The translations under genes were made by a program, and so were the position numbers. From the sequence record MZ726792.1: a stretch of DNA of 64,000 bases; one strand, written 5' to 3'. The DNA is from Escherichia phage vB_EcoM_ASO1B. The notes below the pieces were generated by a model. The model worked only from the letters and a program-made list of their open reading frames with translations. It was not told the origin of the DNA and ran no database searches. Shown here piece after piece: positions 5,235 to 46,201 of this stretch (the first letter of the stretch is position 1; every line of letters starts with the position of its first letter).

Positions 5235-5969
5235 ATGAAAGAGATGACAGAACAAGGTAAGGAGATTTTTAATCTCTTAAAAACCGGTAAAGGGTTTTCT
5301 AACCCACTTATTACTGGTGCAGCAGTTCTCGGTGGAACCGTAGCTGCCTCTACATCACTTGTAAGCTCTATTAGTTCTGTAACAGACCCTACAATGCAGG
5401 AGAAACTTGTTGCTGCTGGACTTACAACAGTCCTTCTAAACAGCTTTACAACAAGCCTTACAAGCACTACAGCAACTACTAAGACCCTGACAGACTACGG
5501 TCAAAAGTCTATTGATGAGTTTTCATCACGTATGCAGGTAGCAAAGGGATATTCCAATGTTATGAGTGCAGCAGGAGAACAAGTTGGTTGTACACCGTTC
5601 AGTGGTATTATGGGTGTTGCTACAGAATATGGTCAAAAAGCTATTGATACAATTAACAGTACACTAGAGAGTGTTAACGATGTATTAAGTGACTTACAAG
5701 ACGCTATTGATGAGGGTCTTGATACTATTTCTGATTTAGCTAATCAGGCTGTTAGTAAGATTAATGAAGGTATTTCAAAGATTACAGCTTATGCAGATGA
5801 AGTTGTGCAGATGATTGAAGAAGAAGCTGCCCTTATTGCAGAGTACCTTAAAACGAATATCAATGGGTTCTTAGCAGGTATCTTACCAGACTGGTTTGAC
5901 GATGCCTGTAAAACTGGTGTAATTGACACTATTGCAACACCAGAAATGAAGAACGCATTACAGAAATAA
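5235..5969 (+). CDS. hypothetical Ser/Thr/Ala-rich protein (245 aa)
   Basis: ORF in track; start moved to ATG 5235 (AAAGGTG ribosome-binding site) because the track start at 5172 lies inside tRNA-Phe. Confidence 0.55.
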   Translation: MKEMTEQGKEIFNLLKTGKGFSNPLITGAAVLGGTVAASTSLVSSISSVTDPTMQEKLVAAGLTTVLLNSFTTSLTSTTATTKTLTDYGQKSIDEFSSRMQVAKGYSNVMSAAGEQVGCTPFSGIMGVATEYGQKAIDTINSTLESVNDVLSDLQDAIDEGLDTISDLANQAVSKINEGISKITAYADEVVQMIEEEAALIAEYLKTNINGFLAGILPDWFDDACKTGVIDTIATPEMKNALQK

Positions 5970-29564: not shown

Positions 29565-29762
29565 ATGCCTACAATCCTAGCAATTCTTCTAAAAAATCTA
29601 GGTAGCTTCTTCTGGAAACTCATTTTATCCCTTCTAAGTGAATACATGATTGAGAAAGTGTTCTTTAGGCTTGCAAGATACCTTGCGAGTAAAACAGACA
29701 CACCTATTGATGATGAGTTCGTAGATAACTTAGAAAAAGCTTTTAAGGGGGAGAATAAATGA
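29565..29762 (+). CDS. small membrane protein (65 aa), holin-like topology
   Basis: N-terminal hydrophobic segment, GAGGTG ribosome-binding site; no adjacent endolysin identified. Confidence 0.4.
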   Translation: MPTILAILLKNLGSFFWKLILSLLSEYMIEKVFFRLARYLASKTDTPIDDEFVDNLEKAFKGENK

Positions 29763-30130
29763 AGTGGCTAGAGGAAGCTTTTAAAAATAATATTGGTGCA
29801 ATTGTTGTTGGTATTTTTAGTGTTATTGGGATGTATACCACTATGCAAGTTTCAAGTGGTAAGCAAGAAGTGTCTGTCACAACAAAGTTACAGCAGCTAG
29901 ATAATTATTCCAAAAGTAACTATTCAGCTATTCGTGATTTACAGTCTGACATGAGACTGATTCAGCTAGGGATGGAGAACCAGAAAGTTCAGTTAGAGAA
30001 CGTTAAGGGTGAGAATGCAAAACTTACCAAAACTCTTGATAAATTCTCTGACAGTGTGAATAATCTGGCTCAATCAGTATCAGCCTTGCAAGCTATTACT
30101 GAAAAGAACACAAAGAATACTGAAAAATAA
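29759..30130 (+). CDS. membrane-anchored coiled-coil protein (123 aa)
   Basis: Hydrophobic segment IGAIVVGIFSVIGMY followed by heptad-like coiled-coil sequence. Confidence 0.45.
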   Translation: MKWLEEAFKNNIGAIVVGIFSVIGMYTTMQVSSGKQEVSVTTKLQQLDNYSKSNYSAIRDLQSDMRLIQLGMENQKVQLENVKGENAKLTKTLDKFSDSVNNLAQSVSALQAITEKNTKNTEK

Positions 30131-30137
30131 AGTTTAA

Positions 30138-30164
30138 GGCTCCTTTTTACGGGAGCCTTTTTTG
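30138..30164 (+). terminator. terminator hairpin between convergent genes
   Basis: GGCTCC-loop-GGAGCC followed by TTTTTT; sits between the 3' ends of + and - strand blocks. Confidence 0.6.
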
Positions 30165-30166
30165 TT

Positions 30167-31066
30167 TTACTTGCCTACTGACAGAGGTGCTTCAATCTTC
30201 CCTGCATGTTGGTAGTTGTTAATTCCACCAATAAAGTCACTTGCAGTAAGATGTTTTAAGTCACTTAAAGTGTTAAGCTGTACACCAATCTCAAAAGTAG
30301 GTGCATGGAACTCTTCATTGTTCATCAGTTCATAAACCTGCTTCATATGGTTCTGATAAATCTGAGTATCTCCAAAGACACCTATCAAGTACCGTGGAGT
30401 GTATCCAGTCATCTTGCAAAGAACTTCCAGAATAAAACCATAAGACGCAATATTAAATGGAAGTCCTAAAAAGGTGTCTACAGAACGTTGATACCATTGT
30501 AAGTCAACTTCACCTTCATTAGTGATATAAATCTGAAACAGAACATGACAAGGTGCTAAAGCCATTGAGTTTGCTGCAATATCTGCTGCATTCCAAGCAT
30601 TAACAAGCATGTAACGGTCTGTGATATCACCCTTCATCTTCGTTACTAAGGCCTCTAACTGGTCTACAACACAACCATTATGACCTTCGAAGTTTCTCCA
30701 CTGAACCCCGTAGATTCTCCCACCTGCATCTTCTAACCAGTCTTGCTCAGAAGAATAGTTAGAGCTTAACCAACGTTTAAAATCATCTGACCAGATGGTC
30801 CAACGTTCTCCATCATTTTCACCCCAAGTGCGATAACGGAGTTCACCAAGTTTATTCTCACCATTCAGGAACCATAAAGCTTCCCCAATAACTTGCCGTG
30901 TAAACACCTGTTTAGATGTTAAGAGTGGGAAACCAGTTCTCATATCAAAACGAAACTGTGGTGGAGCAAATGCAGAGATAACATCCCCAGTTCGTGTAGT
31001 ACGCAGTTCACCAACGGATAAAACATGGTTCAGGATATTTTTGTAACTCAAATCAGCTTGTGACAT
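30167..31066 (-). CDS. thyA: thymidylate synthase (ThyA family)
   Basis: Motifs FPLLTSKQV, LWFLNG, YGVQWRNF, APCHVLFQIY (catalytic Cys), QRSVDTFLGLPFNIASYG, GDTQIYQNH; adjacent to DHFR. Confidence 0.85.
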   Translation of the reverse strand: MSQADLSYKNILNHVLSVGELRTTRTGDVISAFAPPQFRFDMRTGFPLLTSKQVFTRQVIGEALWFLNGENKLGELRYRTWGENDGERWTIWSDDFKRWLSSNYSSEQDWLEDAGGRIYGVQWRNFEGHNGCVVDQLEALVTKMKGDITDRYMLVNAWNAADIAANSMALAPCHVLFQIYITNEGEVDLQWYQRSVDTFLGLPFNIASYGFILEVLCKMTGYTPRYLIGVFGDTQIYQNHMKQVYELMNNEEFHAPTFEIGVQLNTLSDLKHLTASDFIGGINNYQHAGKIEAPLSVGK

Positions 31067-31067
31067 A

Positions 31068-31613
31068 TCAAAAGTGTCCTTTTACTTGTGGAACATAAAT
31101 TTCAAAAGTTGCTTTACCATCCTCTGATGGTTTTGACTGTACCTTTGTAAATACACGGTTATCATACAGCTTCTCAAAGAAGTTTTCAAAAGGTAAATGC
31201 ACAGTGGCCTCTTCAGTAACTTTATGGAAGACTGTATGGAACACCACACCAGCATACGGTAAAGCATTGACAAGGACACCTGCACCACCAATTACAAAGA
31301 CATCTTCATCAATAGAACTATCAAGATACTTCAAAAATGCTCCAAAGGATTCTTTGTTGGCCTTAGCATACATTACATCATCTTTGCCAAAATCTATGCC
31401 TAAGTATGGTACAGAATTTGTTAAGATGAGATTTGCACGTTCTGGTAAAGGTTTACTCCCCAGAGTCTTGAAAGTCTCATTACCCATCACTACTAAGTTA
31501 TTTTTAGTGAGTCTCTTAAACTCTTGCATGTCCTGTTTATGTCGAGGCCACGGCATACCAGTTGGAGTACCAAACTCTCCATTTTCACCACTTGCAAAGA
31601 TTAATTTAATCAT
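31068..31613 (-). CDS. folA: dihydrofolate reductase
   Basis: 181 aa with GMPW, VVMGNETFKTL and VIGGAGV motifs in DHFR-typical spacing. Confidence 0.8.
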   Translation of the reverse strand: MIKLIFASGENGEFGTPTGMPWPRHKQDMQEFKRLTKNNLVVMGNETFKTLGSKPLPERANLILTNSVPYLGIDFGKDDVMYAKANKESFGAFLKYLDSSIDEDVFVIGGAGVLVNALPYAGVVFHTVFHKVTEEATVHLPFENFFEKLYDNRVFTKVQSKPSEDGKATFEIYVPQVKGHF

Positions 31614-31870
31614 TTTGTAAACCCTCTCTTAATGAACCAGTTGATAACATTCTTCACAGCTTTATTGCTATGGTAGATTAAGTGCGGTGTAGGTTGGTAT
31701 GAACCATAAGCCCAGAAAGCAATGATTTCACTACACCCTGTACACCTTGTGCTCTCTTCAGCAATATGACCGTTGACTATTTCACTCACCTCACCTTGCA
31801 AGTCTGTACACCCACAATGTGGACAACGTATAGGTGTTCCATCAGACTCATAGCAGTATTCAATTTTCAT
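31610..31870 (-). CDS. small Zn-ribbon protein (86 aa)
   Basis: CPHCGC ... CTGC cysteine pairs. Confidence 0.5.
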   Translation of the reverse strand: MKIEYCYESDGTPIRCPHCGCTDLQGEVSEIVNGHIAEESTRCTGCSEIIAFWAYGSYQPTPHLIYHSNKAVKNVINWFIKRGFTK

Positions 31871-32392
31871 CTATTTAACCTCAAAAACTGGCTCAAGAAC
31901 CAATATAAAGTCTACACAGTCATCTTCTTCATCCAGAATACCATCAAAGTTCTTAGGAACGAAGTCGAAGAGGCTCATAACAAAACAGTCAGAAGTGACC
32001 TTGATAGTTCCTCCCATGTTCTCTACAGTCAACACTGTACGACTTTCTTTTACCTCCCTCAGAAGATTACCCACAAAGTCATCTAAGAAGTACTTCATCA
32101 GTGACTTAAAACCTTTAGGGTAATCTGTACCAGAGTATGTTTCAATCTGAGGCACAAGCTTAACATTTATACTAGTCTTTGTTAAGAACGTGTTAGAGAA
32201 CATGCTATCAGGTAACTTACAAACAGTCTTTCCAGTACCTTCATGCTCAATCTCAACAAAACCAGCTTCATCGCCACATGTAACTATTTTAAAAGATGCT
32301 TCATTCTCATACTGTGAAGCCATAAACTTTTTAAGCATCTCTTTAAGGAAATCTGCATGAGCATCTTGTAAGTAGATATCAATCATAATCAA
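31871..32392 (-). CDS. hypothetical protein (173 aa)
   Basis: ORF in track, co-oriented early block. Confidence 0.5.
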   Translation of the reverse strand: MIMIDIYLQDAHADFLKEMLKKFMASQYENEASFKIVTCGDEAGFVEIEHEGTGKTVCKLPDSMFSNTFLTKTSINVKLVPQIETYSGTDYPKGFKSLMKYFLDDFVGNLLREVKESRTVLTVENMGGTIKVTSDCFVMSLFDFVPKNFDGILDEEDDCVDFILVLEPVFEVK

Positions 32393-32399
32393 TCACCTA

Positions 32400-32759
32400 T
32401 TATGGGAACAGACACTTAATGTCGTCGTTTTTGAAAACGAAACTTGTGTAGTTGTGACCATCAACATCTAGCCAAACAGCCTGAACATCTACACCATCAA
32501 GATTCTGGTAAAGCTCTTTGATGAAGTGGTCTTTCACAATCTGGCTGCTAGTTGTCTCCAGCTTAATGTTCGAGATTGCTGAACCTACAGCCATATAACC
32601 CATGACACGTTTCTTCTCAGTATGCTTAATCTTACCATCTTTGTAAGCCATAATGAGATTGGAAAGAATCTTTACACCATAATACTTCTCAAGGTGAGTA
32701 GGTACACCATAAAAGCCTAGTGCGAAATTTTCAGAGTGGATAATGTTTTCACGTTTCAT
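32400..32759 (-). CDS. hypothetical protein (119 aa)
   Basis: ORF in track. Confidence 0.5.
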   Translation of the reverse strand: MKRENIIHSENFALGFYGVPTHLEKYYGVKILSNLIMAYKDGKIKHTEKKRVMGYMAVGSAISNIKLETTSSQIVKDHFIKELYQNLDGVDVQAVWLDVDGHNYTSFVFKNDDIKCLFP

Positions 32760-32760
32760 A

Positions 32761-33090
32761 TTAGTCTGCCAACCTTAAATTAAAATTAACACCAAATTTT
32801 TCACATACTTCCAACATATACTCAAGAGAGACATTCCCAGTGAGGTGGATTATGTTGGATACACGAGCTTGAGAGATGCCACAAATTTTAGCGACTTGCT
32901 CTTGAGAAAGACCTCTGGATTTAATCTCTCTCTTAAAACGATGTGCAACGAAGTCTCTCATTTCGTCTACATCCATTGGACAAATATAACTCTCCATTTC
33001 AGCCTCTCTATTAGCCTCCCAATCATCTTGTGGGGCATAAGGGTCAAAAACCTCATTCATCTTTCTTCTTCCGTTTGCGTGAAGTGTCAA
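32761..33090 (-). CDS. putative HTH DNA-binding regulator (109 aa)
   Basis: C-terminal helix-turn-helix-like segment LSQEQVAKICGISQARVSNIIHL. Confidence 0.5.
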   Translation of the reverse strand: MTLHANGRRKMNEVFDPYAPQDDWEANREAEMESYICPMDVDEMRDFVAHRFKREIKSRGLSQEQVAKICGISQARVSNIIHLTGNVSLEYMLEVCEKFGVNFNLRLAD

Positions 33091-33265
33091 TCAATGAATC
33101 TATGTTTGTAGCCCTAACCTTTTCACGTTCATCATTAAGATAATCATCAAGAGCCTTTTCAATCTGTGAATCATCTTGACAGATGACTGTAAAGACTGTA
33201 AAGCCGTCTGTATCGTCAATTATCTTACCATAACCGCTTCTGGGATGTAACTTTTTAAGAGCCAT
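33053..33265 (-). CDS. hypothetical protein (70 aa, basic C-terminus)
   Basis: ORF in track. Confidence 0.4.
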   Translation of the reverse strand: MALKKLHPRSGYGKIIDDTDGFTVFTVICQDDSQIEKALDDYLNDEREKVRATNIDSLIDTSRKRKKKDE

Positions 33266-33266
33266 A

Positions 33267-33656
33267 TCAAATACCTGTGCAGCTTCTGTTTTCTAAGAAA
33301 TACTCCACACCATACATAGCTTTTTGCATCAAATCTTCTTTAAACTGGATACGGTGGTTGAGCATCGCCTGTACATCAATATCATCACGGTGTTTCTCTT
33401 TAATGTTTGCAGATTGCAGGAAATACTCTGCAAGAACACGATACTGGTAGTCAGTTACCTTATCAGTCATCTCTGTTAAAGACTCTTCAGAGATTGGTTT
33501 AAGTAGTTCACCATTAGCTAGAGCAACACCTTTTACAATCTGGCAAGTATCCTCTGGGACACCTGATAAGTTCACATTTGGCAGTTCTGTTGCATTAACT
33601 GGTAAACTCATTGCCATAACCATTGCAGCAGCTAATAAAATCTTTTTCATAAACAC
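33267..33656 (-). CDS. secreted protein with N-terminal signal peptide (129 aa)
   Basis: MFMKKILLAAAMVMAMSLPVNA signal-peptide-like N-terminus. Confidence 0.55.
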   Translation of the reverse strand: MFMKKILLAAAMVMAMSLPVNATELPNVNLSGVPEDTCQIVKGVALANGELLKPISEESLTEMTDKVTDYQYRVLAEYFLQSANIKEKHRDDIDVQAMLNHRIQFKEDLMQKAMYGVEYFLENRSCTGI

Positions 33657-33719
33657 CTCAAAGTTATATTAAATTTTGTATGACGTTGAGTATAAAAATA
33701 AGCTATAACACCTGAACTG

Positions 33720-34040
33720 TCAACAGATTTTATAGCTTATTTGGCAGATTTTTTATAAGGCTACTGCCATCCTTCCATACATCACCTTACCTTACCTCAC
33801 CTGACCTGACCTGACCCTACCTAACATTACCGTGCCACACCTCACTTAAAAACCCTCTTAAAAGACTCTTAAGTGATGTAATCGAATTTTAATGTAGCTC
33901 CGATTAACTACCCATACCTTACTCCGCCTCACCTTACCTAACCGTACCGTACCATACCTGACATAACCGTGCCTTACCTTATTAAAAGACCCTCTTTAAA
34001 GACCTTTTAAAAAGGAGCCTCCGAAGAGGCTACCTAGTCA
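33720..34040. repeat. non-coding repeat region A: degenerate ACCTNAC-type pyrimidine-rich repeats plus conserved boxes; paralogous to region B
   Basis: Shares three boxes with 35100-35465 (box 1 AAAACCCTCTTAAAAGACTCTTAAGTGATGT, box 2 TTTTAATGTAGCTCCGATTAACTACCC, box 3 TTATTAAAAGACCCTCTTTAAAGACCTTTTAAAAAGG) in different order. Confidence 0.8.
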
Positions 34041-34042
34041 AC

Positions 34043-34483
34043 TTAGAAAGGTTTTCTGCGTTGCTTGTTAATATTAGCTTTCATAGCAGCTAAGTGATTT
34101 TGCTGTTCAATCAGTCGTGAACGTTCTTGATGACTAAGTGCCATAGTGTTCACATTCTCAATCGCTTGAGTGGCTTGCTTTAAAGCACGACCAATCTTAC
34201 CAGACATTTTGCGTTTTGCAATAGTTGCTTGATGCTTAGGTTCAACCACACGATAACCAACACCCATTGAAGCAACCAGATAAATCTTCTCTTCTTTAAG
34301 AAGTTTTTCAATAAACTTTTCAAGTCGGTTTAGACGTGTAAGCGCATAAGCCTTCATTTCATCTTCGTACTTAACAATGTCACCTTGATAAGTTGGCTTC
34401 ACAATACCTAAGAAGGTGTCCATCTCAGAATGTGATACAGTGTCACCGTAACTAAACTTTGCTGCTAATGCTTTTGTATTCAT
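34043..34483 (-). CDS. hypothetical protein (146 aa, basic C-terminus) in repeat-flanked cassette
   Basis: ORF in track; followed on - strand by a hairpin (AGCCTCTTCGGAGGCT) and short T-run. Confidence 0.55.
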   Translation of the reverse strand: MNTKALAAKFSYGDTVSHSEMDTFLGIVKPTYQGDIVKYEDEMKAYALTRLNRLEKFIEKLLKEEKIYLVASMGVGYRVVEPKHQATIAKRKMSGKIGRALKQATQAIENVNTMALSHQERSRLIEQQNHLAAMKANINKQRRKPF

Positions 34484-34485
34484 AA

Positions 34486-35091
<606 letters not shown>

Positions 35092-35099
35092 TTAGTTGA

Positions 35100-35465
35100 T
35101 TGTTAAGTTGTTTGTAAAGAACCCTCAACAGAAGACTCTTTAGAAACTTGGTAGATTTTTAACGTGGCTACTACCATCCACCCATACCTCACCTCACTTA
35201 ACCTCACCCTACCACACCAGACATCACCTTACCATACAGCACCTTATTAAAAGACCCTCTTAAAGACCTTTTAAAAAGGTAAGTCTCATTTTAATGTAGC
35301 TGAGACTAACTACCCGCACTTTACCGCACCGGACCTTACCGGACCGCACATCACCGCACTAAACCAGACATCACATTACCTGACCACACCAAACCAAACA
35401 TCACATTACTTAAAAACCCTCTTAGAAGACTCTTAAGTGATGTTGGTGAGTACCCGTTGGTTTAT
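35100..35465. repeat. non-coding repeat region B (paralogue of region A, modules rearranged)
   Basis: Contains the same three conserved boxes as region A interleaved with ACC/CAC-rich degenerate repeats. Confidence 0.8.
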
Positions 35466-35506
35466 GCTGCTCAGTATACTCACCAAATTTTCTATGTCAA
35501 CAACTT

Positions 35507-36610
35507 TTATTCATAATCTCGTATAACTAACCCAACAGGGAACTGTAAAGACCCCTTACGAGTCATCTTCTGGAACTGAACCGTTAAAGGTTTCCCGATA
35601 AACTCTTCAGGATGTTCAGCAAGATACTGTTTCTTCTCGTGTGTAGTTTTCCATGAAACATCTACAAAGACGTTAGGAAGAGTCTCTACAACGAACTTAC
35701 CATGACCACGTTTATCAGTCTTTACACCAGTCACTTTAAACTCTTCAGTGTGCATCTTCTTGTGCTTAATCAAGAAGTATGAACGGTGACAACACTCATA
35801 GAAAGATTCTTCAGAGATTGAACGGTACATTGCACCTTCAAACTGAGCTTCAACCCACTTATCATGGGCTTCATCAAACTCTTCCCAAGAATTTACACGA
35901 CGAGACTTAACAGGAACAACTTTACAGCCGTCTCTGAAGTCATTCAATGGTGAAGTCTCAATAATATCTCTACGCTCAGGCCACGTCTTAGTACTGTCAC
36001 AGATATCATACCAGTAAAACTTGAGTAGATGTCGGTCAGGATTGTCTTCATTTTTAATCATGGAGACAATATCTTCTAAGTCCAACCCATGAGCATAGAT
36101 TTCACCATCAAATTCATCAACGTCTTTATGGAGCCTCAACATTGCCATAATGTCAGGTATTAGCTCAGTAGGAATTTTATAAATAGTGTTCTCACGAGAA
36201 TATGCTGTAAATACACTACCAATACTTAAGTGTCTTGAAATTCTACAACGTACACCATCCAGTTTTGGTTGAGCATCAGCAGGGAACTTCAGATACTTTG
36301 CATGACTAACCTTTGCAGCATCATGAGCAAGCTGTACACCTACCTTCTCAGTATTCTGTGCAGACTCTTTTGTGTAAGCATAACCTTTACGGTCAACTTG
36401 CTTTTTATACTTTGCAGCAACTTCAAAGAGAGCTTGCTGTTCAGCGTTACGCTCATTCTTTTTACCGATGTTTTTAGGTTCTGCTGTATACTCTTCAAAC
36501 ATCATCTTGCCATTTTCTTTACCATAGGTTGTAATAACTTTGTCACCTACAGCAACACATGACCAGATGTTAAAAGAGCCATCTTTATTTTGTTTGTACA
36601 GTATTGTCAT
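35507..36610 (-). CDS. ATP-dependent DNA ligase
   Basis: Motif I KLDGVR (adenylation lysine), DGEIY, EGAMYRS and LIKHKK-like downstream motifs. Confidence 0.75.
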   Translation of the reverse strand: MTILYKQNKDGSFNIWSCVAVGDKVITTYGKENGKMMFEEYTAEPKNIGKKNERNAEQQALFEVAAKYKKQVDRKGYAYTKESAQNTEKVGVQLAHDAAKVSHAKYLKFPADAQPKLDGVRCRISRHLSIGSVFTAYSRENTIYKIPTELIPDIMAMLRLHKDVDEFDGEIYAHGLDLEDIVSMIKNEDNPDRHLLKFYWYDICDSTKTWPERRDIIETSPLNDFRDGCKVVPVKSRRVNSWEEFDEAHDKWVEAQFEGAMYRSISEESFYECCHRSYFLIKHKKMHTEEFKVTGVKTDKRGHGKFVVETLPNVFVDVSWKTTHEKKQYLAEHPEEFIGKPLTVQFQKMTRKGSLQFPVGLVIRDYE

Positions 36611-36611
36611 T

Positions 36612-36803
36612 TTATTCCTCTGAGTGATACCAAGTATTGCAAGTATTACATGCGTAAAGCTCTAAGTCGTTTTTATCTGGTTTATGAAAACAGTTCGCTC
36701 CGCAGTGGCAACGAAACGGCTTTCCACCAACTGTCAGGATGAAGGATTGAACCTTTCCATCAGGAGTTCGTACAGCATTTTTATGCTTATCTTCTTTGTT
36801 CAT
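36612..36803 (-). CDS. small Zn-ribbon protein (63 aa)
   Basis: CHCGANC ... CNTCNTWYH cysteine motifs. Confidence 0.5.
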   Translation of the reverse strand: MNKEDKHKNAVRTPDGKVQSFILTVGGKPFRCHCGANCFHKPDKNDLELYACNTCNTWYHSEE

Positions 36804-36962
36804 TTATCTCTTGCCTTTGTCAGATTTCATATATGACATATTACTACGCCTTTTAATGAAATGCACAACGCATTTTGGTGTATCTTTTGCATCTTTGATG
36901 TGCAACCTTTCGAAACTGCGCACTGTGAAGGTTGCATCTGTCATTGTTTGCTTAGGTTTCAT
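36804..36962 (-). CDS. small hypothetical protein (52 aa), below ORF-track size cutoff
   Basis: Hand-translated: ATG overlaps the upstream stop and its stop abuts the next start. Confidence 0.3.
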   Translation of the reverse strand: MKPKQTMTDATFTVRSFERLHIKDAKDTPKCVVHFIKRRSNMSYMKSDKGKR

Positions 36963-37165
36963 TTTCTCTTACCACCAATCTCTACGTCGATAACTTGAAC
37001 ATCACCAGCAACATCAAACTTATGAATGATGCTCTCAACAGTATAAGTCCAACCATCAATGCGAACCAACTCACCTTCTCGTGGGACGATTGGATTACGT
37101 TGAGCTATTGTTGTAGTGGAGTGAACAACATCATAACGATAGGTATAGTTTACTAATACTTCCAT
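36959..37165 (-). CDS. hypothetical protein (68 aa)
   Basis: Track ORF 36959-37264 trimmed to internal ATG 37165 with GAGGT ribosome-binding site, avoiding overlap with the lipoprotein gene. Confidence 0.45.
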   Translation of the reverse strand: MEVLVNYTYRYDVVHSTTTIAQRNPIVPREGELVRIDGWTYTVESIIHKFDVAGDVQVIDVEIGGKRK

Positions 37166-37175
37166 CGTGAAAACC

Positions 37176-37433
37176 TCACTCAATAACCGTAGTATGTGAT
37201 TGACCATTTTTGCCATAGCTATAAGATGTTGTTGTTTGAGAGTTTTGGCATCTGACAACAACAATATCTCTGCTTATAGCATCACCATTGAGTTTGTAGA
37301 TTTTGCAGTCTTGCATCTCTGGAGGGAGGCTGTAAGAAGCATCTTTGTTTTCATAAGATGGGTTGCAGCCAGCCAGAAAAATTACTCCAAGTGCAACCAT
37401 TGCTTTCACACAACTCTTAACCTTATTGTTCAC
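37176..37433 (-). CDS. lipoprotein (85 aa)
   Basis: Signal peptide with lipobox LAGC (MNNKVKSCVKAMVALGVIFLAGC). Confidence 0.6.
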   Translation of the reverse strand: MNNKVKSCVKAMVALGVIFLAGCNPSYENKDASYSLPPEMQDCKIYKLNGDAISRDIVVVRCQNSQTTTSYSYGKNGQSHTTVIE

Positions 37434-37569
37434 GATAGTCTACCTCTCTGTATGTTTTTAAATAGTGAGTGATGAGTTCTGGTAAGTCACTACGTTTAAC
37501 GTTTGAACGAAGAAGTGTCCAGTCAAAACCTTTACCAACCCTTCCCCAGAGACTGTACATTTTCTTCAT
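37423..37569 (-). CDS. small hypothetical protein (48 aa), below ORF-track size cutoff
   Basis: Hand-translated: ATG at 37569 overlaps the upstream stop; no internal stops. Confidence 0.3.
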   Translation of the reverse strand: MKKMYSLWGRVGKGFDWTLLRSNVKRSDLPELITHYLKTYREVDYREQ

Positions 37570-37799
37570 AGCAACTCCAGAATATCAATACGTTCACCTT
37601 TGAGTACTCCAGTACGGTCTTTTGCAATCTTACCGTCAACGATAAGGATGTGTGTAGACCTTAAAGCGTCGTTGTTAAAGGTTTTTACGAACTTGCTAGG
37701 CATGACTACAATGGACATCTCCTGAATTAACTCTGGAGTGTAGCAGTTATCATGAAGTTGCTGAATAACGTCTGCAAGTGTCATTTTTGATGTCTCCAA
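37566..37799 (-). CDS. hypothetical protein (77 aa)
   Basis: ORF in track. Confidence 0.45.
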   Translation of the reverse strand: METSKMTLADVIQQLHDNCYTPELIQEMSIVVMPSKFVKTFNNDALRSTHILIVDGKIAKDRTGVLKGERIDILELL

Positions 37800-37990
37800 T
37801 ATTCAATATCTACAAGTTCTTGTGCAATGCTTTTAAGGTTACTTTTAAGGAAAACTTTCTCACCACCAGACAGGGAAGTGTTATCAATGAGTCTATTCAT
37901 TTTCTCAAACAACTTCTGCTTACGGTTCTTGATAGTTTCCTTTGAAGCACCTTTCATCATCGCTGCATGGGTTCTTCCACGATGGCTCAT
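37781..37990 (-). CDS. hypothetical protein (69 aa)
   Basis: ORF in track. Confidence 0.4.
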   Translation of the reverse strand: MSHRGRTHAAMMKGASKETIKNRKQKLFEKMNRLIDNTSLSGGEKVFLKSNLKSIAQELVDIEYWRHQK

Positions 37991-38041
37991 AAGCCCTCCT
38001 ATACAAGATGTAGTATAAGGTACTCTTCCATGAGCACCTTG

Positions 38042-38557
38042 TCAACTTAGTTTTGCAAACTCTCCGTGGAGTTTAATAGCAGCTTCACAGTAAGCTTTAT
38101 GGGCTTCTTCTTCTGTTGTGTACGTCCCTATATGTATAGTCTTACCATTATGGTTAATCTGGGCTATCCACTTACCAGACTTGCTTCTACTTGTACCTTT
38201 TAAGTTTTTTGATGTTCTGGGTTGTCTCCTATTAGACATGTTCTGCTCTTTTGTGGCCTCTCTTAGATTGTCCCAAGCGTTATTCAAACCATCCCCATCT
38301 TTGTGGTCAATGTGTTTATCAGGCCACTTACCTGTCATCCAGAACCAAGCAATTCGGTGATTACCTGTCCTGTATCCTAAAATCTGTGTGTGCATATACA
38401 CACCAGACCTTGTGCGCTTAATTGCTCCGGCTTGGCTTCCAATGACCACCCTACTACTATGTGGAGGTCTGCCAATCCATGTTAAGACCCCTGTTTCGGG
38501 GTCATAATCTAACCAAGACTTTAACTGTTCATGTGTGAATCCACAATCTCTCATCAA
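38042..38557 (-). CDS. HNH homing endonuclease with AP2-like C-terminal domain (paralogue 1)
   Basis: Family signature YDPETGVLTW and HIDHKDGDGLNNAWDNLR; C-terminal GKWIAQINHNGKTIHIGTYTTEEEAHKAY; start overlaps the DNA polymerase stop. Confidence 0.8.
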   Translation of the reverse strand: MMRDCGFTHEQLKSWLDYDPETGVLTWIGRPPHSSRVVIGSQAGAIKRTRSGVYMHTQILGYRTGNHRIAWFWMTGKWPDKHIDHKDGDGLNNAWDNLREATKEQNMSNRRQPRTSKNLKGTSRSKSGKWIAQINHNGKTIHIGTYTTEEEAHKAYCEAAIKLHGEFAKLS

Positions 38558-41253
38558 TGTACCTCATACCAGCTTTTACCAACCTTACCAGTACCAGTTA
38601 CCAGTGTTTCACTCTTTAGTCCTAAGTTCTTAGAGGCTTGCCCGTAATACCAATCAGTGACAGCCTTCACCTCTGCCGTCATACTTTCTGGACATTCCCA
38701 ACTCGTCTCATCGTGATAGGAGCACAATAAACGAGCACCTATAGCTGGTTTGCGACCGTTCAACTTCATCAAACCTTCGTCAATCATACGACGGCAAGCA
38801 AGGTTAATTGCCTCGTTCTGAATCTGACTTTCCGAACCCATAAGCAAATAATTCAACAACTTATGTGGAGATTTACACCACAACCAAGCTCCAGCAACCT
38901 TTACAAAACCCCCTTTAGAGATTGCAGCAGTCTTACCAAACACCTCTTCAAGTGCCTTTTTAGTTGCTTTGTAGTCAGCTTCCAAGTCATCTAGCAGCTT
39001 CTTAATTTTAGGCAAACGAATAAAGTAAGTCTGTTTAGTCAGTGCACCTTCCTGAGTAGTTGCAGCTTTAATCGTCTTAGCAAACTTCTCATCACCTGCA
39101 CCGAACAGCAGTGCATAGATACCATTCTTAGCTTTCTTACGGCCTTTGCTAATCTCATGGAGAAGGTTCTCATCCTGAGTAGCTCGACAAGTCAAGATAT
39201 CCTGCTCATCATTCAAGCTAAAGTAAATACTGTTCAATGTATGTGCATCAGTCCCTGAATAGACAACGTACAGGTCATTCTCAGAGTCATAGCGAAGGTA
39301 CTTATCAATCTCTGGGTTCAGGTACTCATCAAAATGTTTGCAGTAATAGCGTCCATCTTCTTGACGAATGAACTCAATTTCTTCTTTACCTTGCGTTACC
39401 GCTTTGGTGAAGTCTTTATCACCCATAAAGTTACAAAGAAGAACTAGCTGGGCTGAGTTCATATCTACAGAGACAACGTTAGTACCTTCCTCACAAATCC
39501 ATACTGCCCTCATTGGTTCTCCATAGACAGCAGCACCAGACGGTACGTTTACAATACCATACTGTGTCATACGTCCAGTTGAAGTACCAAACACCATTGC
39601 ACCAGCACTAAGGCGACCATCAGGACGAATCTGGTTAAGCCAACCTTTTTCATCATCCTTTGAGTTCTCAATAGTTCTGCGTCGGTGCATCAAAGTATAG
39701 TACTTAGCAATCTTCTGTCCAAGCTCACCTTCAATCGTATCATAAGATGATTCAGTAAGTTTTGGTGAAGTACGGATTAAGCAAGGTTCAAGCAAATCTG
39801 TGTATTTCTTCACAGACCAGTTATGCTCGATGTACTGTACACCTTCATGTTCAACATAACTCAAACCACACCGCTCAACCATTTCCTGCCACTTAGGATG
39901 CTTTGTAATCATCTTTTTATTGTCTTTGAAACGACAAACTTTGACAGGGCGACCGTCTGAGTCTTTCTTGTAGTTCCAGTCATCTGGAATCCAACCAACT
40001 GATTTCAAGTAGTCTTTTACAACTGCTACCTGAGTCATACGAGAAACTTCAAACTCAATTGGTGTATATGGTGCATCAATCAATCCTGTGTAGCGACTTG
40101 ACTCAAGTTCAAAGTGGTTAACAACGTGGCTGTTATAGTACTTCACAGTTTTGACTGTTTTTACTGGCTTCCAGTCTTTGCATTTCTTACCAATCTTTGC
40201 ATTCAACTCATTGCAAATTGCACGAGCATCCTTCATTGCTACAAAACCTTCCTTGTACTCTTCACCAGTTACAGAGTTGGTTGGTGTGTAGCAATTTCTC
40301 TTTTCAATGTTAAAAATCTTTGTAGTTGGCTTACCAAACGGTTTGATTTCGTATGTCTGCATCTCACCGTTACGTACCTGTTGACGATACTTTGTCTTAG
40401 GGTACTTGGTAATTCTCTTCAGTCCATCTGCATGACCGAACGCTTCAACATACTCATTCCAAGCTTTTGCAAACTCTTCTCCAGTGACTTTACCTTTGGT
40501 CTTAATAGTTGGAGGAAGATGTGGTTCAACCTCTGAAGCAAGCTCATTAGTCAACTTGTCAAGTTCCTTTACATGGAACTCCATAAGCTCTTTATCAGCT
40601 TTCCAACCATTGATAGCTTGTTGACTCATCCAGAAAGATGTTTCTTTAGCTCGCATGTAGGTTTCATAAGTGTCTATGCCACACTTCTTAAGCTTGAGAT
40701 ACTCATTATCAAGTGCCCGTTTAGTTTTGGCGTTAATACGGATATCTTCTACAACACGAGTGAAGATTTCTGCATTCCACACACCCCAATGTTCAATCTC
40801 TGGTTTACGAACACCAACACGAGCACCCCATGCAGCCAAGCCATGAGCACCTTTATAACCCTTTGGAGTTGGTCTATCCATCCACTGAACACGAGACTGG
40901 ATAAGAGAATCCTGAAAGAAATTACTCCACGGCTTACACTTTGGATTATCAAAGTTCCATAAATCCGGTGCAATGTGATTGAAAACCCACCAGTCATAAC
41001 CTAGACCATTATGAATGCAAAGACGTTTTGCCTTTAACGCAAACTCAATACCTTCACGTAAGCCACCCTTAATGTACTTGGTATACTTGTGACCGAGGAT
41101 AGGCTCATCTGTAAAGACCCATACAGGTGGCTCTTCATCGTCAGATTTATAGTCTGCGAAAGCCATTACGTGCACTTTAGTGAACTCAAGGAGTAAACCA
41201 TCAGTTTCTGTATCACCAACTAAATGTAAGTTTTTAAAATCTACGTTTTCCAT
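38554..41253 (-). CDS. DNA polymerase, family A
   Basis: N-terminal DTETDGL exonuclease motif, motif B-like RKKAKNGIYALLFGAG, motif C YHDE; start set at ATG 41253 after GAGGGAG (track start 41283). Confidence 0.8.
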   Translation of the reverse strand: MENVDFKNLHLVGDTETDGLLLEFTKVHVMAFADYKSDDEEPPVWVFTDEPILGHKYTKYIKGGLREGIEFALKAKRLCIHNGLGYDWWVFNHIAPDLWNFDNPKCKPWSNFFQDSLIQSRVQWMDRPTPKGYKGAHGLAAWGARVGVRKPEIEHWGVWNAEIFTRVVEDIRINAKTKRALDNEYLKLKKCGIDTYETYMRAKETSFWMSQQAINGWKADKELMEFHVKELDKLTNELASEVEPHLPPTIKTKGKVTGEEFAKAWNEYVEAFGHADGLKRITKYPKTKYRQQVRNGEMQTYEIKPFGKPTTKIFNIEKRNCYTPTNSVTGEEYKEGFVAMKDARAICNELNAKIGKKCKDWKPVKTVKTVKYYNSHVVNHFELESSRYTGLIDAPYTPIEFEVSRMTQVAVVKDYLKSVGWIPDDWNYKKDSDGRPVKVCRFKDNKKMITKHPKWQEMVERCGLSYVEHEGVQYIEHNWSVKKYTDLLEPCLIRTSPKLTESSYDTIEGELGQKIAKYYTLMHRRRTIENSKDDEKGWLNQIRPDGRLSAGAMVFGTSTGRMTQYGIVNVPSGAAVYGEPMRAVWICEEGTNVVSVDMNSAQLVLLCNFMGDKDFTKAVTQGKEEIEFIRQEDGRYYCKHFDEYLNPEIDKYLRYDSENDLYVVYSGTDAHTLNSIYFSLNDEQDILTCRATQDENLLHEISKGRKKAKNGIYALLFGAGDEKFAKTIKAATTQEGALTKQTYFIRLPKIKKLLDDLEADYKATKKALEEVFGKTAAISKGGFVKVAGAWLWCKSPHKLLNYLLMGSESQIQNEAINLACRRMIDEGLMKLNGRKPAIGARLLCSYHDETSWECPESMTAEVKAVTDWYYGQASKNLGLKSETLVTGTGKVGKSWYEVH

Positions 41254-41510
41254 TTTTACTCCCTCTAAAATCATTAACCTCATACATTACTGCAAAAAAT
41301 TATAAAAAGCAAGTTGACAATGCACTTGACAAGGTGTTAATCTTTGCGAAGTGGGTTTTTACTTAAAAGGTTACTTAACAGTTTAACTATACAGATACTT
41401 TAAAAGTCTTAAAAGATTATTTAATAGCTTTTAAAAAGCTTTAAAGTATAACGTATAGAATACGTTAAGATAAAAGATTAAAACTTAATAGTTACTTAAA
41501 AGAGGCTTAC

Positions 41511-41933
41511 ATGCAGAAAATGTTTGTTCACCCAGACATAGCTGACTTTGTTAGAGCTTTGCAAAAGTTGGAAGAACTTGACATTGCTGCTCAACGGGAA
41601 TATGCTCACCATCACAGGAGAATGGTTGATATACAACATGAAATAGAGTTGTCTGAAAACTATGAAGATGACTTAAAATGCTCTGTATTTGAGCATATGA
41701 AAGATGTTGCTACAGCGAGACGTAAAGCTAAAGACACAGTTGCTTTACTAGATTCTCTTAAAAAGAGGTTGCAAAGTGGTACAGACCTGTGTAATCTAGC
41801 GTCACTGATTAACGATGTTGAAACTTCTTGGGATAGGCACTATTATCCACGTTCTGAAAAGACACTTGACTTTTCTTCATCCGAAAACTTAAAATGTTCT
41901 AGAAAGAAACTTAACCAACTGAGAGAGAAATAA
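41511..41933 (+). CDS. hypothetical protein (140 aa)
   Basis: First ORF of + strand block after the divergent intergenic region. Confidence 0.5.
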   Translation: MQKMFVHPDIADFVRALQKLEELDIAAQREYAHHHRRMVDIQHEIELSENYEDDLKCSVFEHMKDVATARRKAKDTVALLDSLKKRLQSGTDLCNLASLINDVETSWDRHYYPRSEKTLDFSSSENLKCSRKKLNQLREK

Positions 41934-41934
41934 T

Positions 41935-42735
41935 ATGAATATCGATGTAGAAAAGATGCTTGAAGAGAAAGGTATTGACGAAGCATTTTTAATCAATGCC
42001 GTAGAAAGCATGGCTATGATTCTTCGTGGTAACAACTACACAGAACAGTTTATGCCTGCAAGCTATAACTTGCCTGAAGACAAGTCTGATAACGGTGCTT
42101 TTGCAGAACAGGTTAACATGATGCTTTGCGACAAAACACTTGCTTTAGCATCTATCGTTGTAGGTGTTGATGCCCTTGCAGAGTTCATTTTTTATGAGAT
42201 GCAGAAAAATGATTATATTGCCATGACCACTGAAGAAAAAGACTTGCTACTACTCGCAGGTAACGATGAACTAATTGACCTGTTAATTTCATCAACTAGT
42301 GCTGTTATGGCTGCTCTTGAGAAGCGCATGGAAGAAAAACTTTCACGATATGAAAAACTTGATTGGGGTGTAGAAGAATTAAACCCACGAATCAAAGAAA
42401 TTATCCAGCAAACTAAAGAGTCTTTGGAAGAAGCTGTTGAAAATGACTCTGTAGCTGATATAGAACCTCTTCAGGTGAAAGTTGCACTGATGATTCCAGC
42501 TATCTCTACGATGATGAATATCGTTGCACTAATCCAACTTTCACAGATGATGGGTGTAAGTATTGAGTTCATTGAAGAGATGACTGGTGGCGTTAGTATG
42601 CAAGCAATAAATGATGTTTTGGTGAACATTGGTGCTTCAATCATTGAAGAGAAACTACGCATTAACTTCGGTGATGATTTTGTGAAGCAAATCTCAGCTA
42701 TGGCTGAAAAAGAGTATGCTGAGCAACTGCACTAA
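41935..42735 (+). CDS. hypothetical acidic protein (266 aa)
   Basis: ORF in track, followed by a terminator. Confidence 0.5.
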   Translation: MNIDVEKMLEEKGIDEAFLINAVESMAMILRGNNYTEQFMPASYNLPEDKSDNGAFAEQVNMMLCDKTLALASIVVGVDALAEFIFYEMQKNDYIAMTTEEKDLLLLAGNDELIDLLISSTSAVMAALEKRMEEKLSRYEKLDWGVEELNPRIKEIIQQTKESLEEAVENDSVADIEPLQVKVALMIPAISTMMNIVALIQLSQMMGVSIEFIEEMTGGVSMQAINDVLVNIGASIIEEKLRINFGDDFVKQISAMAEKEYAEQLH

Positions 42736-45727: not shown

Positions 45728-45983
45728 TAGTTACAGAAGAGAGGGGTTCACACCCTTCTTTGAAGAAAAAAGTTTAAATGAATTTCAGGAAGAGTGTTTG
45801 ACAAAGGTTGATAGGTTCTATAGAATGCTCTACATGAAATGTGATGGGGGTGTTGAGGTAGAAGAAAAGTTCCATCACAGTATGATAACAGTCACTATTA
45901 CTATACCTCGACATAATATTGGTTGGCTGTTTATAATTAAAGAAAATGTGTTTGAATATCAAGTATATCGGAGAATATCATGA
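45690..45983 (+). CDS. hypothetical protein (97 aa)
   Basis: ORF in track. Confidence 0.4.
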   Translation: MRMQMTAHSKLSDSYRREGFTPFFEEKSLNEFQEECLTKVDRFYRMLYMKCDGGVEVEEKFHHSMITVTITIPRHNIGWLFIIKENVFEYQVYRRIS

Positions 45984-46129
45984 AACACTCTAAAGCATTT
46001 GAACAAGTTTTTGGGGATTCCTTAAAAGCCACTGCTGGTAAACCAGCAAAATACTATGAAGAGAAGCGTGTAAGAACTGGAAAAACTGCACGTAAAGCAG
46101 CTTCTAAAGATAAGCACAACTTCCAGTAA
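45980..46129 (+). CDS. small basic hypothetical protein (49 aa), below ORF-track size cutoff
   Basis: Hand-translated; ATG overlaps the upstream stop (ATGA). Confidence 0.3.
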   Translation: MKHSKAFEQVFGDSLKATAGKPAKYYEEKRVRTGKTARKAASKDKHNFQ

Positions 46130-46136
46130 TTAATGT

Positions 46137-46165
46137 TTGACAATAGAGTATCAACAAATTAGAAT
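46137..46165 (+). promoter_or_regulatory. sigma70-like promoter (TTGACA-17-TAGAAT)
   Basis: TTGACA 46137-46142, TAGAAT 46160-46165, upstream of the SSB-like gene. Confidence 0.5.
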
Positions 46166-46201
46166 TGGTACTCTTCATAAATTGAGATAGAGGTTTAAAT
46201 A

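Follow-up and report, generated by a model that had tools for sequence, protein, structure and literature searches.

A probable type II VIPR locus at the centre of an early-gene block in Escherichia phage vB_EcoM_ASO1B

The systems called VIPR, for Viral Interference Programmable Repeat, recently described in two preprints, consist of Vipr, a minimal RAMP protein, of Vap, which is accessory, and of guide RNAs of about 100 nt, the vrRNAs (10.64898/2026.04.26.720920, 10.64898/2026.04.26.720927). Each vrRNA comprises 9-16 YNNGG repeats followed by a conserved tail, a pseudoknot in the clade named after phage SUSP1; one Vipr protomer sits on each repeat, the GGY being sequestered and the NN pairing with DNA so that every third target base is skipped, and the R-loop triplex silences transcription, on either strand and with no protospacer-adjacent motif (10.64898/2026.04.26.720920, 10.64898/2026.04.26.720927). 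Expression of the vrRNAs, their co-purification with Vipr, silencing and its enhancement by Vap1 have been shown for SUSP1 only, which has one vrRNA upstream and three downstream of vipr-vap1; in its clade, 18 of the 20 assignable guides aim at an E. coli satellite phage marked by WP_096972663 and WP_096972664 (10.64898/2026.04.26.720920, 10.64898/2026.04.26.720927). Here we report the analysis of 64,000 nucleotides of Escherichia phage vB_EcoM_ASO1B (record MZ726792.1), hereafter the window, in which we find what is, with a probability of about 90%, a complete type II VIPR locus of the SUSP1 clade.

The window belongs to a Felixounavirus genome (Felix O1-like, Ounavirinae). Between the genes for dihydrofolate reductase (DHFR; 31068-31613) and DNA polymerase (38554-41283), all genes are on the minus strand and tightly packed, with short start/stop overlaps shared by neighbouring open reading frames (ORFs), and coding is interrupted by two gaps of about 400 bp each, at 33657-34042 and 35089-35506. 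The region very probably represents a transcription block of early genes, mosaic in composition, in a Felix O1-like phage, with the VIPR locus at its centre. The first-pass annotation, made from the letters and the list of ORFs, had presented it as a cluster of small zinc-ribbon, helix-turn-helix (HTH), secreted and lipoprotein genes; the genes it named are all present, but it overlooked the DNA ligase, the two repeat-filled gaps and the two-gene cassette lying between them. On the minus strand, the VIPR locus is laid out in the following order:

35473-35500, minus strand: sigma-70-like promoter, TTGACA-16-TATACT, 11/12 in a consensus scan, right after the ligase stop and upstream of vrRNA A
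35281-35410, minus strand: vrRNA A (vrA), 19 units at 35410-35316, tail GGGTAGTTAGTCTCAGCTACATTAAAATGAGACT from 35315
35149-35243, minus strand: vrRNA B (vrB), 12 GGYNN units at 35243-35184, tail GGGTGGATGGTAGTAGCCACGTTAAAAATCTACCA from 35183
34486-35073, minus strand: vipr, 195-aa RAMP-like protein; PDB 36pp_D, 191/195 residues identical to SUSP1 Vipr, phrog_4652
34043-34483, minus strand: vap1, 146-aa VIPR accessory protein; 145/146 residues identical to the product of the SUSP1 gene downstream of vipr, phrog_5926
34016-34031, minus strand: terminator-like GC hairpin and T run, from the consensus scan, just past the vap1 stop codon
33879-33978, minus strand: vrRNA C (vrC), 13 GGYNN units at 33978-33914, tail GGGTAGTTAATCGGAGCTACATTAAAATTCGATT from 33913
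33742-33841, minus strand: vrRNA D (vrD), 13 units at 33841-33777, tail GGAAGGATGGCAGTAGCCTTATAAAAAATCTGCCA from 33776

The first of these elements is a candidate promoter of the whole VIPR unit.

The identification rests first on the two proteins. The profile of the 195-aa family matches a single PDB entry, 36pp, 'SUSP1 Vipr protein', at E=1e-78, and the identity to the SUSP1 proteins reaches 98% for Vipr and 99% for Vap1. The earlier statement that nothing in the block was identifiable by motif is thus wrong for this pair. In the pairwise alignment with SUSP1 Vipr, the residues that contact the GGY, the skipped base and the non-target strand (roles taken from the structural preprint) are all kept, namely H17, K33, R39, E71, M72, K82 and G87, and so are the further contact residues K88, R138, C173, D177, W178 and R179. 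The AlphaFold model of Vipr has a predicted local distance difference test score (pLDDT) of 95.9, and its best Foldseek matches are Csm3/Cas7 proteins, which form the backbone of type III and type VII complexes of CRISPR (clustered regularly interspaced short palindromic repeats) systems, with E from 3.5e-5, a template modelling score of about 0.5 and 7-17% identity. Structure prediction and fold comparison, which had been proposed as a check, were informative for this ORF; the model of the 119-aa ORF of the same block, built from a shallow alignment of 9 sequences, reached a pLDDT of only 50.

The Vipr family extends over more than 500 clusters from phages and prophages of Proteobacteria and Actinobacteria, 37-50% identical to the 195-aa ORF and with no Pfam domain, in which K41, D45, Y59, R138, W144 and a C-terminal loop are invariant. 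In unrelated contexts (phage contigs from skin metagenomes, a Rhodococcus chromosome), vipr is always followed by a gene for a partner of 176-182 aa, which is homologous to the 146-aa Vap1 (pairwise E=6e-8). A PDB sequence search with Vap1 gave no match; the protein is predicted to be a winged-helix-like DNA binder (10.64898/2026.04.26.720920, 10.64898/2026.04.26.720927).

The second line of evidence is the content of the two gaps. Read on the minus strand, both are built of units of about 135-160 bp, each made of a conserved leader (for example CTTAAGAGTCTTTTAAGAGGGTTTTTAAGTGA and AAAGGTCTTTAAAGAGGGTCTTTTAATAA), 12-19 GGYNN pentamers and a tail of about 35 nt. A purpose-written scan found four GGYNN arrays, all in the two gaps flanking vipr-vap1 and on the coding strand, and no others on either strand of the 64 kb. 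The same finder recovers the published layout of SUSP1, with its one upstream and three downstream arrays, against two and two here. The GGY is canonical, at 83-92% by unit, in three of the arrays, with 9 of 12 units of vrB, 10 of 13 of vrC and 11 of 12 of vrD. For vrA the count is 15-19 units; 8 of the 19 carry TGT or AGT instead of GGY, the strict GGY run extends over 35395-35321, and an internal 30-nt duplication repeats the leader end and the first units. The guides, written as their successive NN, are as follows:

vrA, the 3' 12 units: GA CT TT GC GA GC CC AA CC GC AA GC
vrB: GC AT AA GA CT GT AG GA TA GA GA AT
vrC: AA AC TA CA AT AC AC TA AA GA GG AA AT
vrD: GT AC AA TA AG CA CA CA GA AA AA GA AT

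Across 38 arrays from 10 phages, 37 guide strings are distinct and the NN positions have an entropy of about 1.9 bits, with conserved leaders and tails; the second G is present in 99% and the pyrimidine in 100% of the units, figures that are partly circular since the finder requires 2/3 GGY matches per unit. The tails fall into four types, and 12 distinct tails align without gaps into an H-type pseudoknot, with helix 1 formed by columns 3-6/17-20 and helix 2 by columns 8-15/28-35. In this alignment, 89.6% of the cells are paired, with compensatory double changes at 9 of the 12 pairs, against 26-46% of paired cells in a slid control in which the partners were moved by 1-3 columns. A scan of 30000-42000 against Rfam 15 at permissive E-values returned a single chance-level match, so that the vrRNAs are not represented in Rfam. 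Origin iterons, two-tetrad G-quadruplexes, a Shine-Dalgarno-like sponge and a TRAP-like ring on triplets of 5-nt period had also been considered for these arrays, and were set aside in favour of VIPR after the PDB match. Short ORFs lie on the arrays of the upstream gap at 35103-35207 in the window, at 5525-5629 and 5720-5908 in locus L001 and at 45907-46197 in Salmonella phage SeKF_63; the one in the window has no family match, those over the arrays of H12 and SeKF_63 are annotated as hypothetical proteins in GenBank, and all are probably spurious.

The third line of evidence comes from the decoded guides. Of 5,426 complete E. coli genomes, 474 have in their chromosome a gene labelled "phage baseplate protein" that is matched, at 60-95% identity, by nucleotides 22-579 of the baseplate-hub gene of the phage (20070-20867). 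These genes, up to about 94% identical in nucleotide sequence to that part of the hub gene, belong to a satellite of about 11 kb (extent read in locus L017), found at four or more chromosomal sites (yciI/tonB, a DUF72 gene near yecD, mdtG and yegS/yegR) and encoding a large serine recombinase, small ORFs, an HNH endonuclease, a tape-measure protein, the baseplate protein and sometimes a Dam-like methyltransferase. The satellite of strain SCU-387 (L020) carries the two proteins named in the preprints, WP_096972663 and WP_096972664. It also has a 10-unit vrRNA of its own, with a pseudoknot-type tail, at 2953-3002 on its minus strand, about 360 bp from the site matched by vrC.

We scanned 11 satellite loci (L017-L027), sampled from the 474, with the patterns NNxNNx... 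that follow from the one-nucleotide skip. The best match of the 3' 12 units of vrA (20/24, 83%) is in the satellite tape-measure gene, at the same site in 6 of the 11 satellites. That of vrB (20/24, 83%, the first ten units being perfect) is in a gene for a 236-aa satellite protein, again in 6 of 11. For vrC the best value is 23/26 (88%), about 190 bp upstream of the Dam-like methyltransferase gene in 3 of 11 satellites, with 22/26 in a fourth, and for vrD it is 22/26 (85%), in a satellite gene of about 109 aa. All four exceed a match of 80% of the NN bases, and the predicted satellite sites are L021 9625-9659, L017 12145-12179, L025 3497-3534 and L018 6977-7014. When the order of the units was shuffled, over five loci, maxima were of 19-20 and the observed value was reached in 0-1 of 200 shuffles; within the window itself, guide self-matches do not exceed 73%. 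The skipped bases fall on codon position 3 in the targets of vrA and vrB, as the preprints report. In all four guides the last unit (AT in vrB, vrC and vrD, GC in vrA) is never fully matched at the best target, and as AT ends most of the arrays found, this terminal unit probably belongs to the constant tail. The 5' seven units of vrA match perfectly (14/14) a different satellite gene, at 8063-8082 in L025, for which we roughly estimate a chance probability of 0.002-0.01.

The locus thus resembles that of SUSP1 (Suspvirus) in its slot, with the secreted-protein gene on one side and the DNA ligase gene on the other, in its leader motifs, its four pseudoknot tail types and its GGYNN units, and in its target class, an E. 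coli satellite with tape-measure and baseplate genes. It differs by its two upstream and two downstream vrRNAs instead of one and three, by all four guide strings, by the 19 units and chimeric look of vrA as compared with the published 9-16, and by its position in a Felixounavirus genome whose flanking genes are 32-87% identical to those of SUSP1. As the locus falls in the experimentally characterised SUSP1 clade, the system itself is already known from the 2026 preprints, even if its label in GenBank is still "hypothetical". The new points are modest: the two-plus-two layout, the guide set with its predicted satellite sites and the chimeric-looking vrA, together with the non-pairing terminal unit, orphan arrays in phage Bas63 and the reassortment of arrays between phages, to which we return below.

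The relation to class 1 CRISPR-Cas systems is more distant. Vipr shares with the Cas7, Csm3 and Cmr4 RAMPs an RNA recognition motif core, a glycine-rich loop and a thumb, and both polymerise along a guide RNA; the VIPR guide differs in being non-contiguous, with 2/5 of the RNA bases pairing with 2/3 of the DNA bases. No repeat-spacer array was found, as repeat finders return from the region only the pentamer arrays and the units of about 135-160 bp, and none of the region ORFs scanned with Pfam, NCBIfam and PADLOC matched cas1, cas2, Cas6 or an effector nuclease, Vipr itself matching no Cas model. Another parallel is the Vibrio phage ICP1, which Seed et al. are said to have shown in 2013, in Nature, to carry a full type I-F CRISPR-Cas system that targets the PLE satellite, acquires new guides by adaptation and degrades DNA. 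Both cases would be of a lytic phage with an RNA-guided system aimed at a chromosomal satellite parasite, with the difference that VIPR relies on one small protein, has no known acquisition machinery and, according to the SUSP1 data, silences transcription instead of cutting the DNA.

A tblastn search detected Vipr in 131 phage records. Felix O1-like phages account for 117 of them, with identities of at least 90%, and of at least 99% in 68 cases; the remaining 14 are distant, at less than 60% identity, and belong to phages of Gordonia, Pseudomonas, Mycobacterium, Listonella and a handful of others. All the annotated records in that listing give the protein the label "hypothetical protein" or "Phage protein". 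Since the whole region matches 259 records, about 45% of them carry the cassette, and VIPR is a presence/absence cassette in these phages. Relative to SUSP1, identity is 98-99% for Vipr and Vap1 but drops to 87% for the adjacent ligase and to 32% for the secreted protein, which suggests from these comparisons that the cassette moves, or is swept, between genomes. Phage Bas63 (L009, MZ501086) has at 3341-3548, on the minus strand, two arrays, one of 10 and one of 17 units, in which leaders and pseudoknot tails are normal, and no vipr or vap1; the 17-unit array contains an AT/TA expansion of a guide also found in phage XTG1.

The mechanism proposed in the 2026 SUSP1 work would apply here by virtue of the 98-99% protein identity and of the matching RNA anatomy. 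Each array would be transcribed into a GGYNN RNA of about 100 nt capped by a 3' pseudoknot, along which Vipr protomers, with their minimal Cas7-like RAMP fold, would polymerise at one per pentamer, sequestering each GGY. The exposed NN would then pair with double-stranded DNA, every third target base being skipped, to give an R-loop triplex blocking transcription, a silencing that Vap1 would enhance. The four guides would be aimed at the satellite of about 11 kb integrated in E. coli chromosomes. This satellite has its own tape-measure gene and a baseplate-hub gene whose nucleotide sequence is over 90% identical to that of the phage hub, and the likely role would be to silence a parasite that would otherwise hijack virion parts of the phage.

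Several observations weigh against this interpretation. The sources on VIPR are preprints, and the conservation of the GGY is in part imposed by the array finder. With 19 units, 8 of them degenerate, vrA is atypical and outside the published range. The placement of vrC and vrD downstream of the terminator-like hairpin makes their transcription an assumption, drawn from the analogy with SUSP1. The target of vrC is non-coding, and that of vrD is not wobble-aligned in the annotated frame. No perfect full-length guide match was found in the 11 sampled satellites, and exact-pattern scans of IMG/VR with the full-length vrB and vrD targets gave 0 matches.

Among the alternatives, the one that survives best is that the key content of the block lies elsewhere, in the small secreted, lipoprotein, zinc-ribbon and HTH proteins, acting as host-takeover, superinfection-exclusion or anti-defence factors, as the first-pass annotation had suggested; the lipoprotein, for example, would block a receptor, as Llp does in T5. 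We consider this alternative rather unlikely. The genes concerned, with the ligase, are the following:

37781-37990, minus strand: 69-aa ORF, phrog_5180
37566-37784, minus strand: 72-aa ORF, phrog_4230
37423-37569, minus strand: 48-aa ORF, phrog_2381
37176-37433, minus strand: 85-aa lipoprotein, lipobox LAGC seen on inspection, phrog_902 (E=2e-17)
36959-37165, minus strand: 68-aa ORF, phrog_4427
36804-36962, minus strand: 52-aa ORF, phrog_25478 (E=4e-41), no counterpart in Bas63
36612-36803, minus strand: 63-aa zinc-ribbon miniprotein, CHC..C...CNTC, phrog_5768
35507-36610, minus strand: ATP-dependent DNA ligase, 367 aa, Pfam DNA_ligase_A_M, phrog_114, the largest gene in the range
33723-33695, minus strand: promoter-like site TTGACA-17-TATTTT from the consensus scan, heading the operon of the secreted and HTH proteins
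33267-33650, minus strand: secreted protein, 127 aa, Sec signal peptide seen on inspection (MKKILLAAAMVMAMSLPVNA, then TE...), phrog_4332
33053-33265, minus strand: 70-aa ORF, PHROG match
32761-33060, minus strand: Cro/C1-type HTH regulator, 99 aa, Pfam HTH_3 (E=6e-10), PHROG match
32400-32759, minus strand: 119-aa ORF, PHROG match
31871-32386, minus strand: 171-aa ORF, PHROG match
31610-31870, minus strand: 86-aa zinc-ribbon ORF, CPHCGC...CTGC, PHROG match

The HTH protein and the 70-aa ORF match, as a pair, phrog_1373 and phrog_4473, and the 119-, 171- and 86-aa ORFs jointly phrog_4116, phrog_4422 and phrog_2993. As the small ORFs of the block each match a PHROG, with E between 1e-17 and 1e-97, they are conserved genes and not chance ORFs. 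In the scans of the region ORFs with Pfam, PHROGs, NCBIfam and PADLOC, names were obtained only for the HTH protein, the ligase and an HNH endonuclease. The ligase is supported by DNA_ligase_A_M at 30.2 bits (cut-off 26.2) and phrog_114 at E=8e-94, its OB domain remaining under the threshold (DNA_ligase_OB_2, 25.6 bits for a cut-off of 28). It is the one gene for which profile searches returned a housekeeping homologue, and it had gone unmentioned in the first-pass annotation.

The features on which this alternative was built are real. The protein predicted at 33267-33656 begins with a typical Sec signal peptide, with an AXA-type cleavage site between SLPVNA and TE and two cysteines in the mature part read from the translation; its PHROG match sets in at residue 3 only, so that translation probably starts at the ATG at 33650. 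The lipobox of the protein at 37176-37433 reads VIFLAGC followed by N, the cysteine pairs of both zinc ribbons are in place, and HTH_3, found in residues 53-103 of the listed ORF 32761-33090, scores 39.4 bits, above the curated cut-off of 23. The short overlaps between tiny ORFs are also genuine, except for that between the lipoprotein gene and the 101-aa ORF 36959-37264, which is apparent only: phrog_4427 matches residues 34-101, so that the gene starts at Met34 and encodes 68 aa. Moreover, the secreted protein is only 32% identical to its SUSP1 counterpart (L016, 27119-27499), as compared with 87-99% for its neighbours, and is predicted to be a fast-evolving periplasmic protein; this divergence, and its dispensability in Bas63, would fit an accessory or conflict gene. 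The -35 hexamer of the promoter-like site 33723-33695 is flanked by the two arms of a 19-nt inverted repeat (33696-33714/33724-33742, 89% complementary), which might serve as an operator for the HTH protein of the same operon.

The function proposed for these genes found no support. Searches with Pfam and NCBIfam, and with PADLOC and PDB sequences on subsets of the proteins, stayed below their cut-offs for any characterised exclusion, anti-restriction or anti-defence family; the secreted protein and the lipoprotein had no match in these four collections, and neither zinc ribbon had a match in the PDB sequence search. The 86-aa zinc ribbon was tried as a member of the restriction-alleviation family Lar, the label given to its Bas63 homologue gp32 in the PhageMaP study; it shares with Lar a small CxxC...CxxC ribbon and a link, through this homologue, to the restriction background, but membership found no support at 16.9 bits against a cut-off of 39.6 (TIGR03655), the match covering the ribbon motif only (residues 15-47) and Pfam Lar giving no match. 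For the 63-aa zinc ribbon, a widespread small domain (233 clusters at E<=1e-3 among 1.8 billion representatives, usually in proteins of 55-170 aa), fusions to NUDIX and to dATP/dGTP pyrophosphohydrolase occur too rarely to point to a function. The lipoprotein has 11 close clusters only in a search of 5.8 billion proteins, the named one being from a Felix O1-like phage, and a precomputed PF16225 tag on its homologues was not reproduced by a direct Pfam scan. Llp of T5 and Cor of phi80 and N15 are phage lipoproteins of superinfection exclusion. Like them, this one is a small outer-membrane-type lipoprotein of a lytic phage, encoded in an early block; unlike them, it has no detectable sequence relation to a named family, and deletion of its Bas63 homologue carries a fitness cost in laboratory hosts. 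Since the receptor of Felix O1-type phages is the lipopolysaccharide, a lipoprotein masking the receptor would also lack an obvious target.

Knock-out data from Bas63 argue in the same direction. We mapped the barcoded knock-outs of the PhageMaP study onto the window by protein identity (65-100%), with scores in strain MG1655 unless stated, negative values indicating a fitness cost (10.1101/2024.10.10.617714). The largest cost is that of gp40, homologue of the 63-aa zinc ribbon (74% identical), at -2.1 to -3.0, similar to the DNA polymerase; costs are also reported for gp35 (HTH, -1.4), gp34 (119 aa, -1.3), gp32 (86-aa zinc ribbon, -1.2), gp42 (lipoprotein, 84% identical, -1.0 to -1.35), gp36 (70 aa, -1.0, noisy), gp41 (68 aa, 94% identical, -0.2 to -1.0), gp39 (ligase, -0.1 to -1.0, and -1.4 to -1.8 in S17) and gp43 (48 aa, about -0.4) (10.1101/2024.10.10.617714). 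Values are about 0 for gp33 (171 aa) and for gp37 (the secreted protein, dispensable), +0.15 for gp44 (72 aa) and +0.6 for gp45 (69 aa) (10.1101/2024.10.10.617714). As the upstream gp44 and gp45 are neutral, polar effects seem limited. By analogy with these knock-outs, some of the small ORFs would be needed for normal growth. The cost of disrupting the HTH, 119-aa, 63-aa zinc-ribbon and lipoprotein genes in defence-poor laboratory strains looks more like that of core infection functions, and the homologue of the 63-aa protein, gp40, was validated as a trigger of the Hhe defence rather than as a factor countering one (10.1101/2024.10.10.617714). In favour of a role in conflict, gp32 is less important in DH10B and is described as conditionally important depending on the host restriction background (10.1101/2024.10.10.617714). 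Besides Lar, the BLAST labels given in that study ("nucleoside triphosphate hydrolase", "heme degrading enzyme-like", "ATP-binding sugar transporter") had no matches in our profile searches; the labels Lar and "nucleoside triphosphate hydrolase", which stand in PhageMaP and GenBank, were not borne out by profiles. For the small genes that the first-pass annotation named, the outcome is thus mostly deflationary, one gene of the block being plain housekeeping and several others looking like core infection functions. The more general idea of a block hiding conflict factors holds, in that VIPR is a system of warfare between elements, but it is made of ORFs and non-coding repeats that had not been named. 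The rest of the block is ordinary: a DNA ligase, an HTH regulator and roughly a dozen small ORFs, which are conserved in those Felix O1-like relatives that we examined.

We regard it as improbable that the VIPR locus is decaying or inactive in this phage, or that it is aimed elsewhere, at other phages or host genes. Such a view would account for the 8 degenerate units and the internal duplication of vrA, for the lack of a perfect target, for Bas63, which has lost vipr and vap1 and is still viable with its orphan arrays, and for the roughly 55% of related records without vipr. It fits poorly with the intact Vipr and Vap1 ORFs, 98-100% identical over more than 100 phages in which the flanking genes have diverged, a pattern implying strong purifying selection or recent spread, nor does it fit with the mostly canonical GGY units of vrB, vrC and vrD, or with four best matches that all fall in the satellite, at conserved sites and above the shuffle nulls. 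A purely DNA-level role of the arrays, as origin iterons, protein-binding arrays or bent DNA near replication genes, is highly improbable: their place between the ligase and polymerase genes, their 5-bp period of half a helical turn, their variable copy number in relatives and the speculation, in the GenBank record of XTG1, on partition-protein binding repeats nearby would all suit it, but the arrays are all on one strand, their tail helices keep pairing through compensatory changes, an RNA-level constraint, variation is confined to the NN positions, the NN strings once decoded lead to specific satellite genes, the homologous SUSP1 arrays are transcribed and co-purify with Vipr (10.64898/2026.04.26.720920, 10.64898/2026.04.26.720927), and the 'StbAB' repeat of XTG1 is an 11-bp feature inside a coding region, unrelated to the arrays.

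If the locus is the VIPR system we describe, the origin of its guides can be considered. One might speculate, very tentatively and against the odds in our own estimate, that guide repertoires diversify by recombination of vrRNA genes, and not by a dedicated acquisition machine, and that arrays circulate apart from the protein. The chimera-like vrA, with its duplication and with 5' and 3' parts matching different satellite genes, points to recombination, and may be a recombinant guide. The circulation of arrays is suggested by phage TH10, which shares with the window only vrA, as an identical array, by SeKF_63, in which the vrA+vrB block is identical and the downstream block 95.9% identical, and by Bas63, which keeps two intact-looking arrays without vipr and vap1. 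A Vipr-positive phage infecting the same cell might make use of these orphan guides in trans, or they might serve as decoys.

As for the genome in which the locus is embedded, more than 200 phage records match the 6.4-kb region at 90-95% identity, mostly Felixounavirus within the Ounavirinae, with Escherichia, Salmonella, Shigella and Citrobacter as hosts. At least 80% of the region is covered in 52 of these records, none is identical, and TH10 is the best overall relative (93%). GenBank names in the relatives are thymidylate synthase, DHFR, transcriptional regulator, DNA ligase, homing endonuclease and DNA polymerase, the rest being "hypothetical protein". The small-gene block is set apart from the DNA polymerase gene by a homing endonuclease:

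38042-38557, minus strand: homing endonuclease with HNH_3 and AP2 domains

This gene is absent from H12 and fjerdesal, and Bas63 has a different allele, 48% identical. On the other side of the block, a GC-rich hairpin flanked on either side by T runs (30136-30159) separates the converging holin-like (29759-30130, plus strand) and thymidylate synthase (30167-31066, minus strand) genes and looks like a bidirectional terminator. Two of the records compared have unreliable taxonomy or host labels: phage P54 (PV390658.1) is filed under Tequatrovirus and its region is colinear with this Felix O1-like block, and 'Staphylococcus phage SA1' (GU169904.1) contains Felix O1-like DNA.

VIPR is a newly described minimal system of RNA-guided DNA recognition, proposed as a relative or an ancestor of the CRISPR RAMPs, and its presence here bears first on annotation, as 117 Felix O1-like records carry Vipr at 90% identity or more, some of them with spurious ORFs over the guide arrays. 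Felix O1-type phages, which recognise lipopolysaccharide, are used in Salmonella diagnostics, and biocontrol and therapy are further uses. Of the 5,426 complete E. coli genomes, 474, or about 9%, have a matching satellite, which gives the system practical relevance for the use of these phages. As the guides can be read from each phage sequence, they would predict which chromosomal satellites that phage fights.

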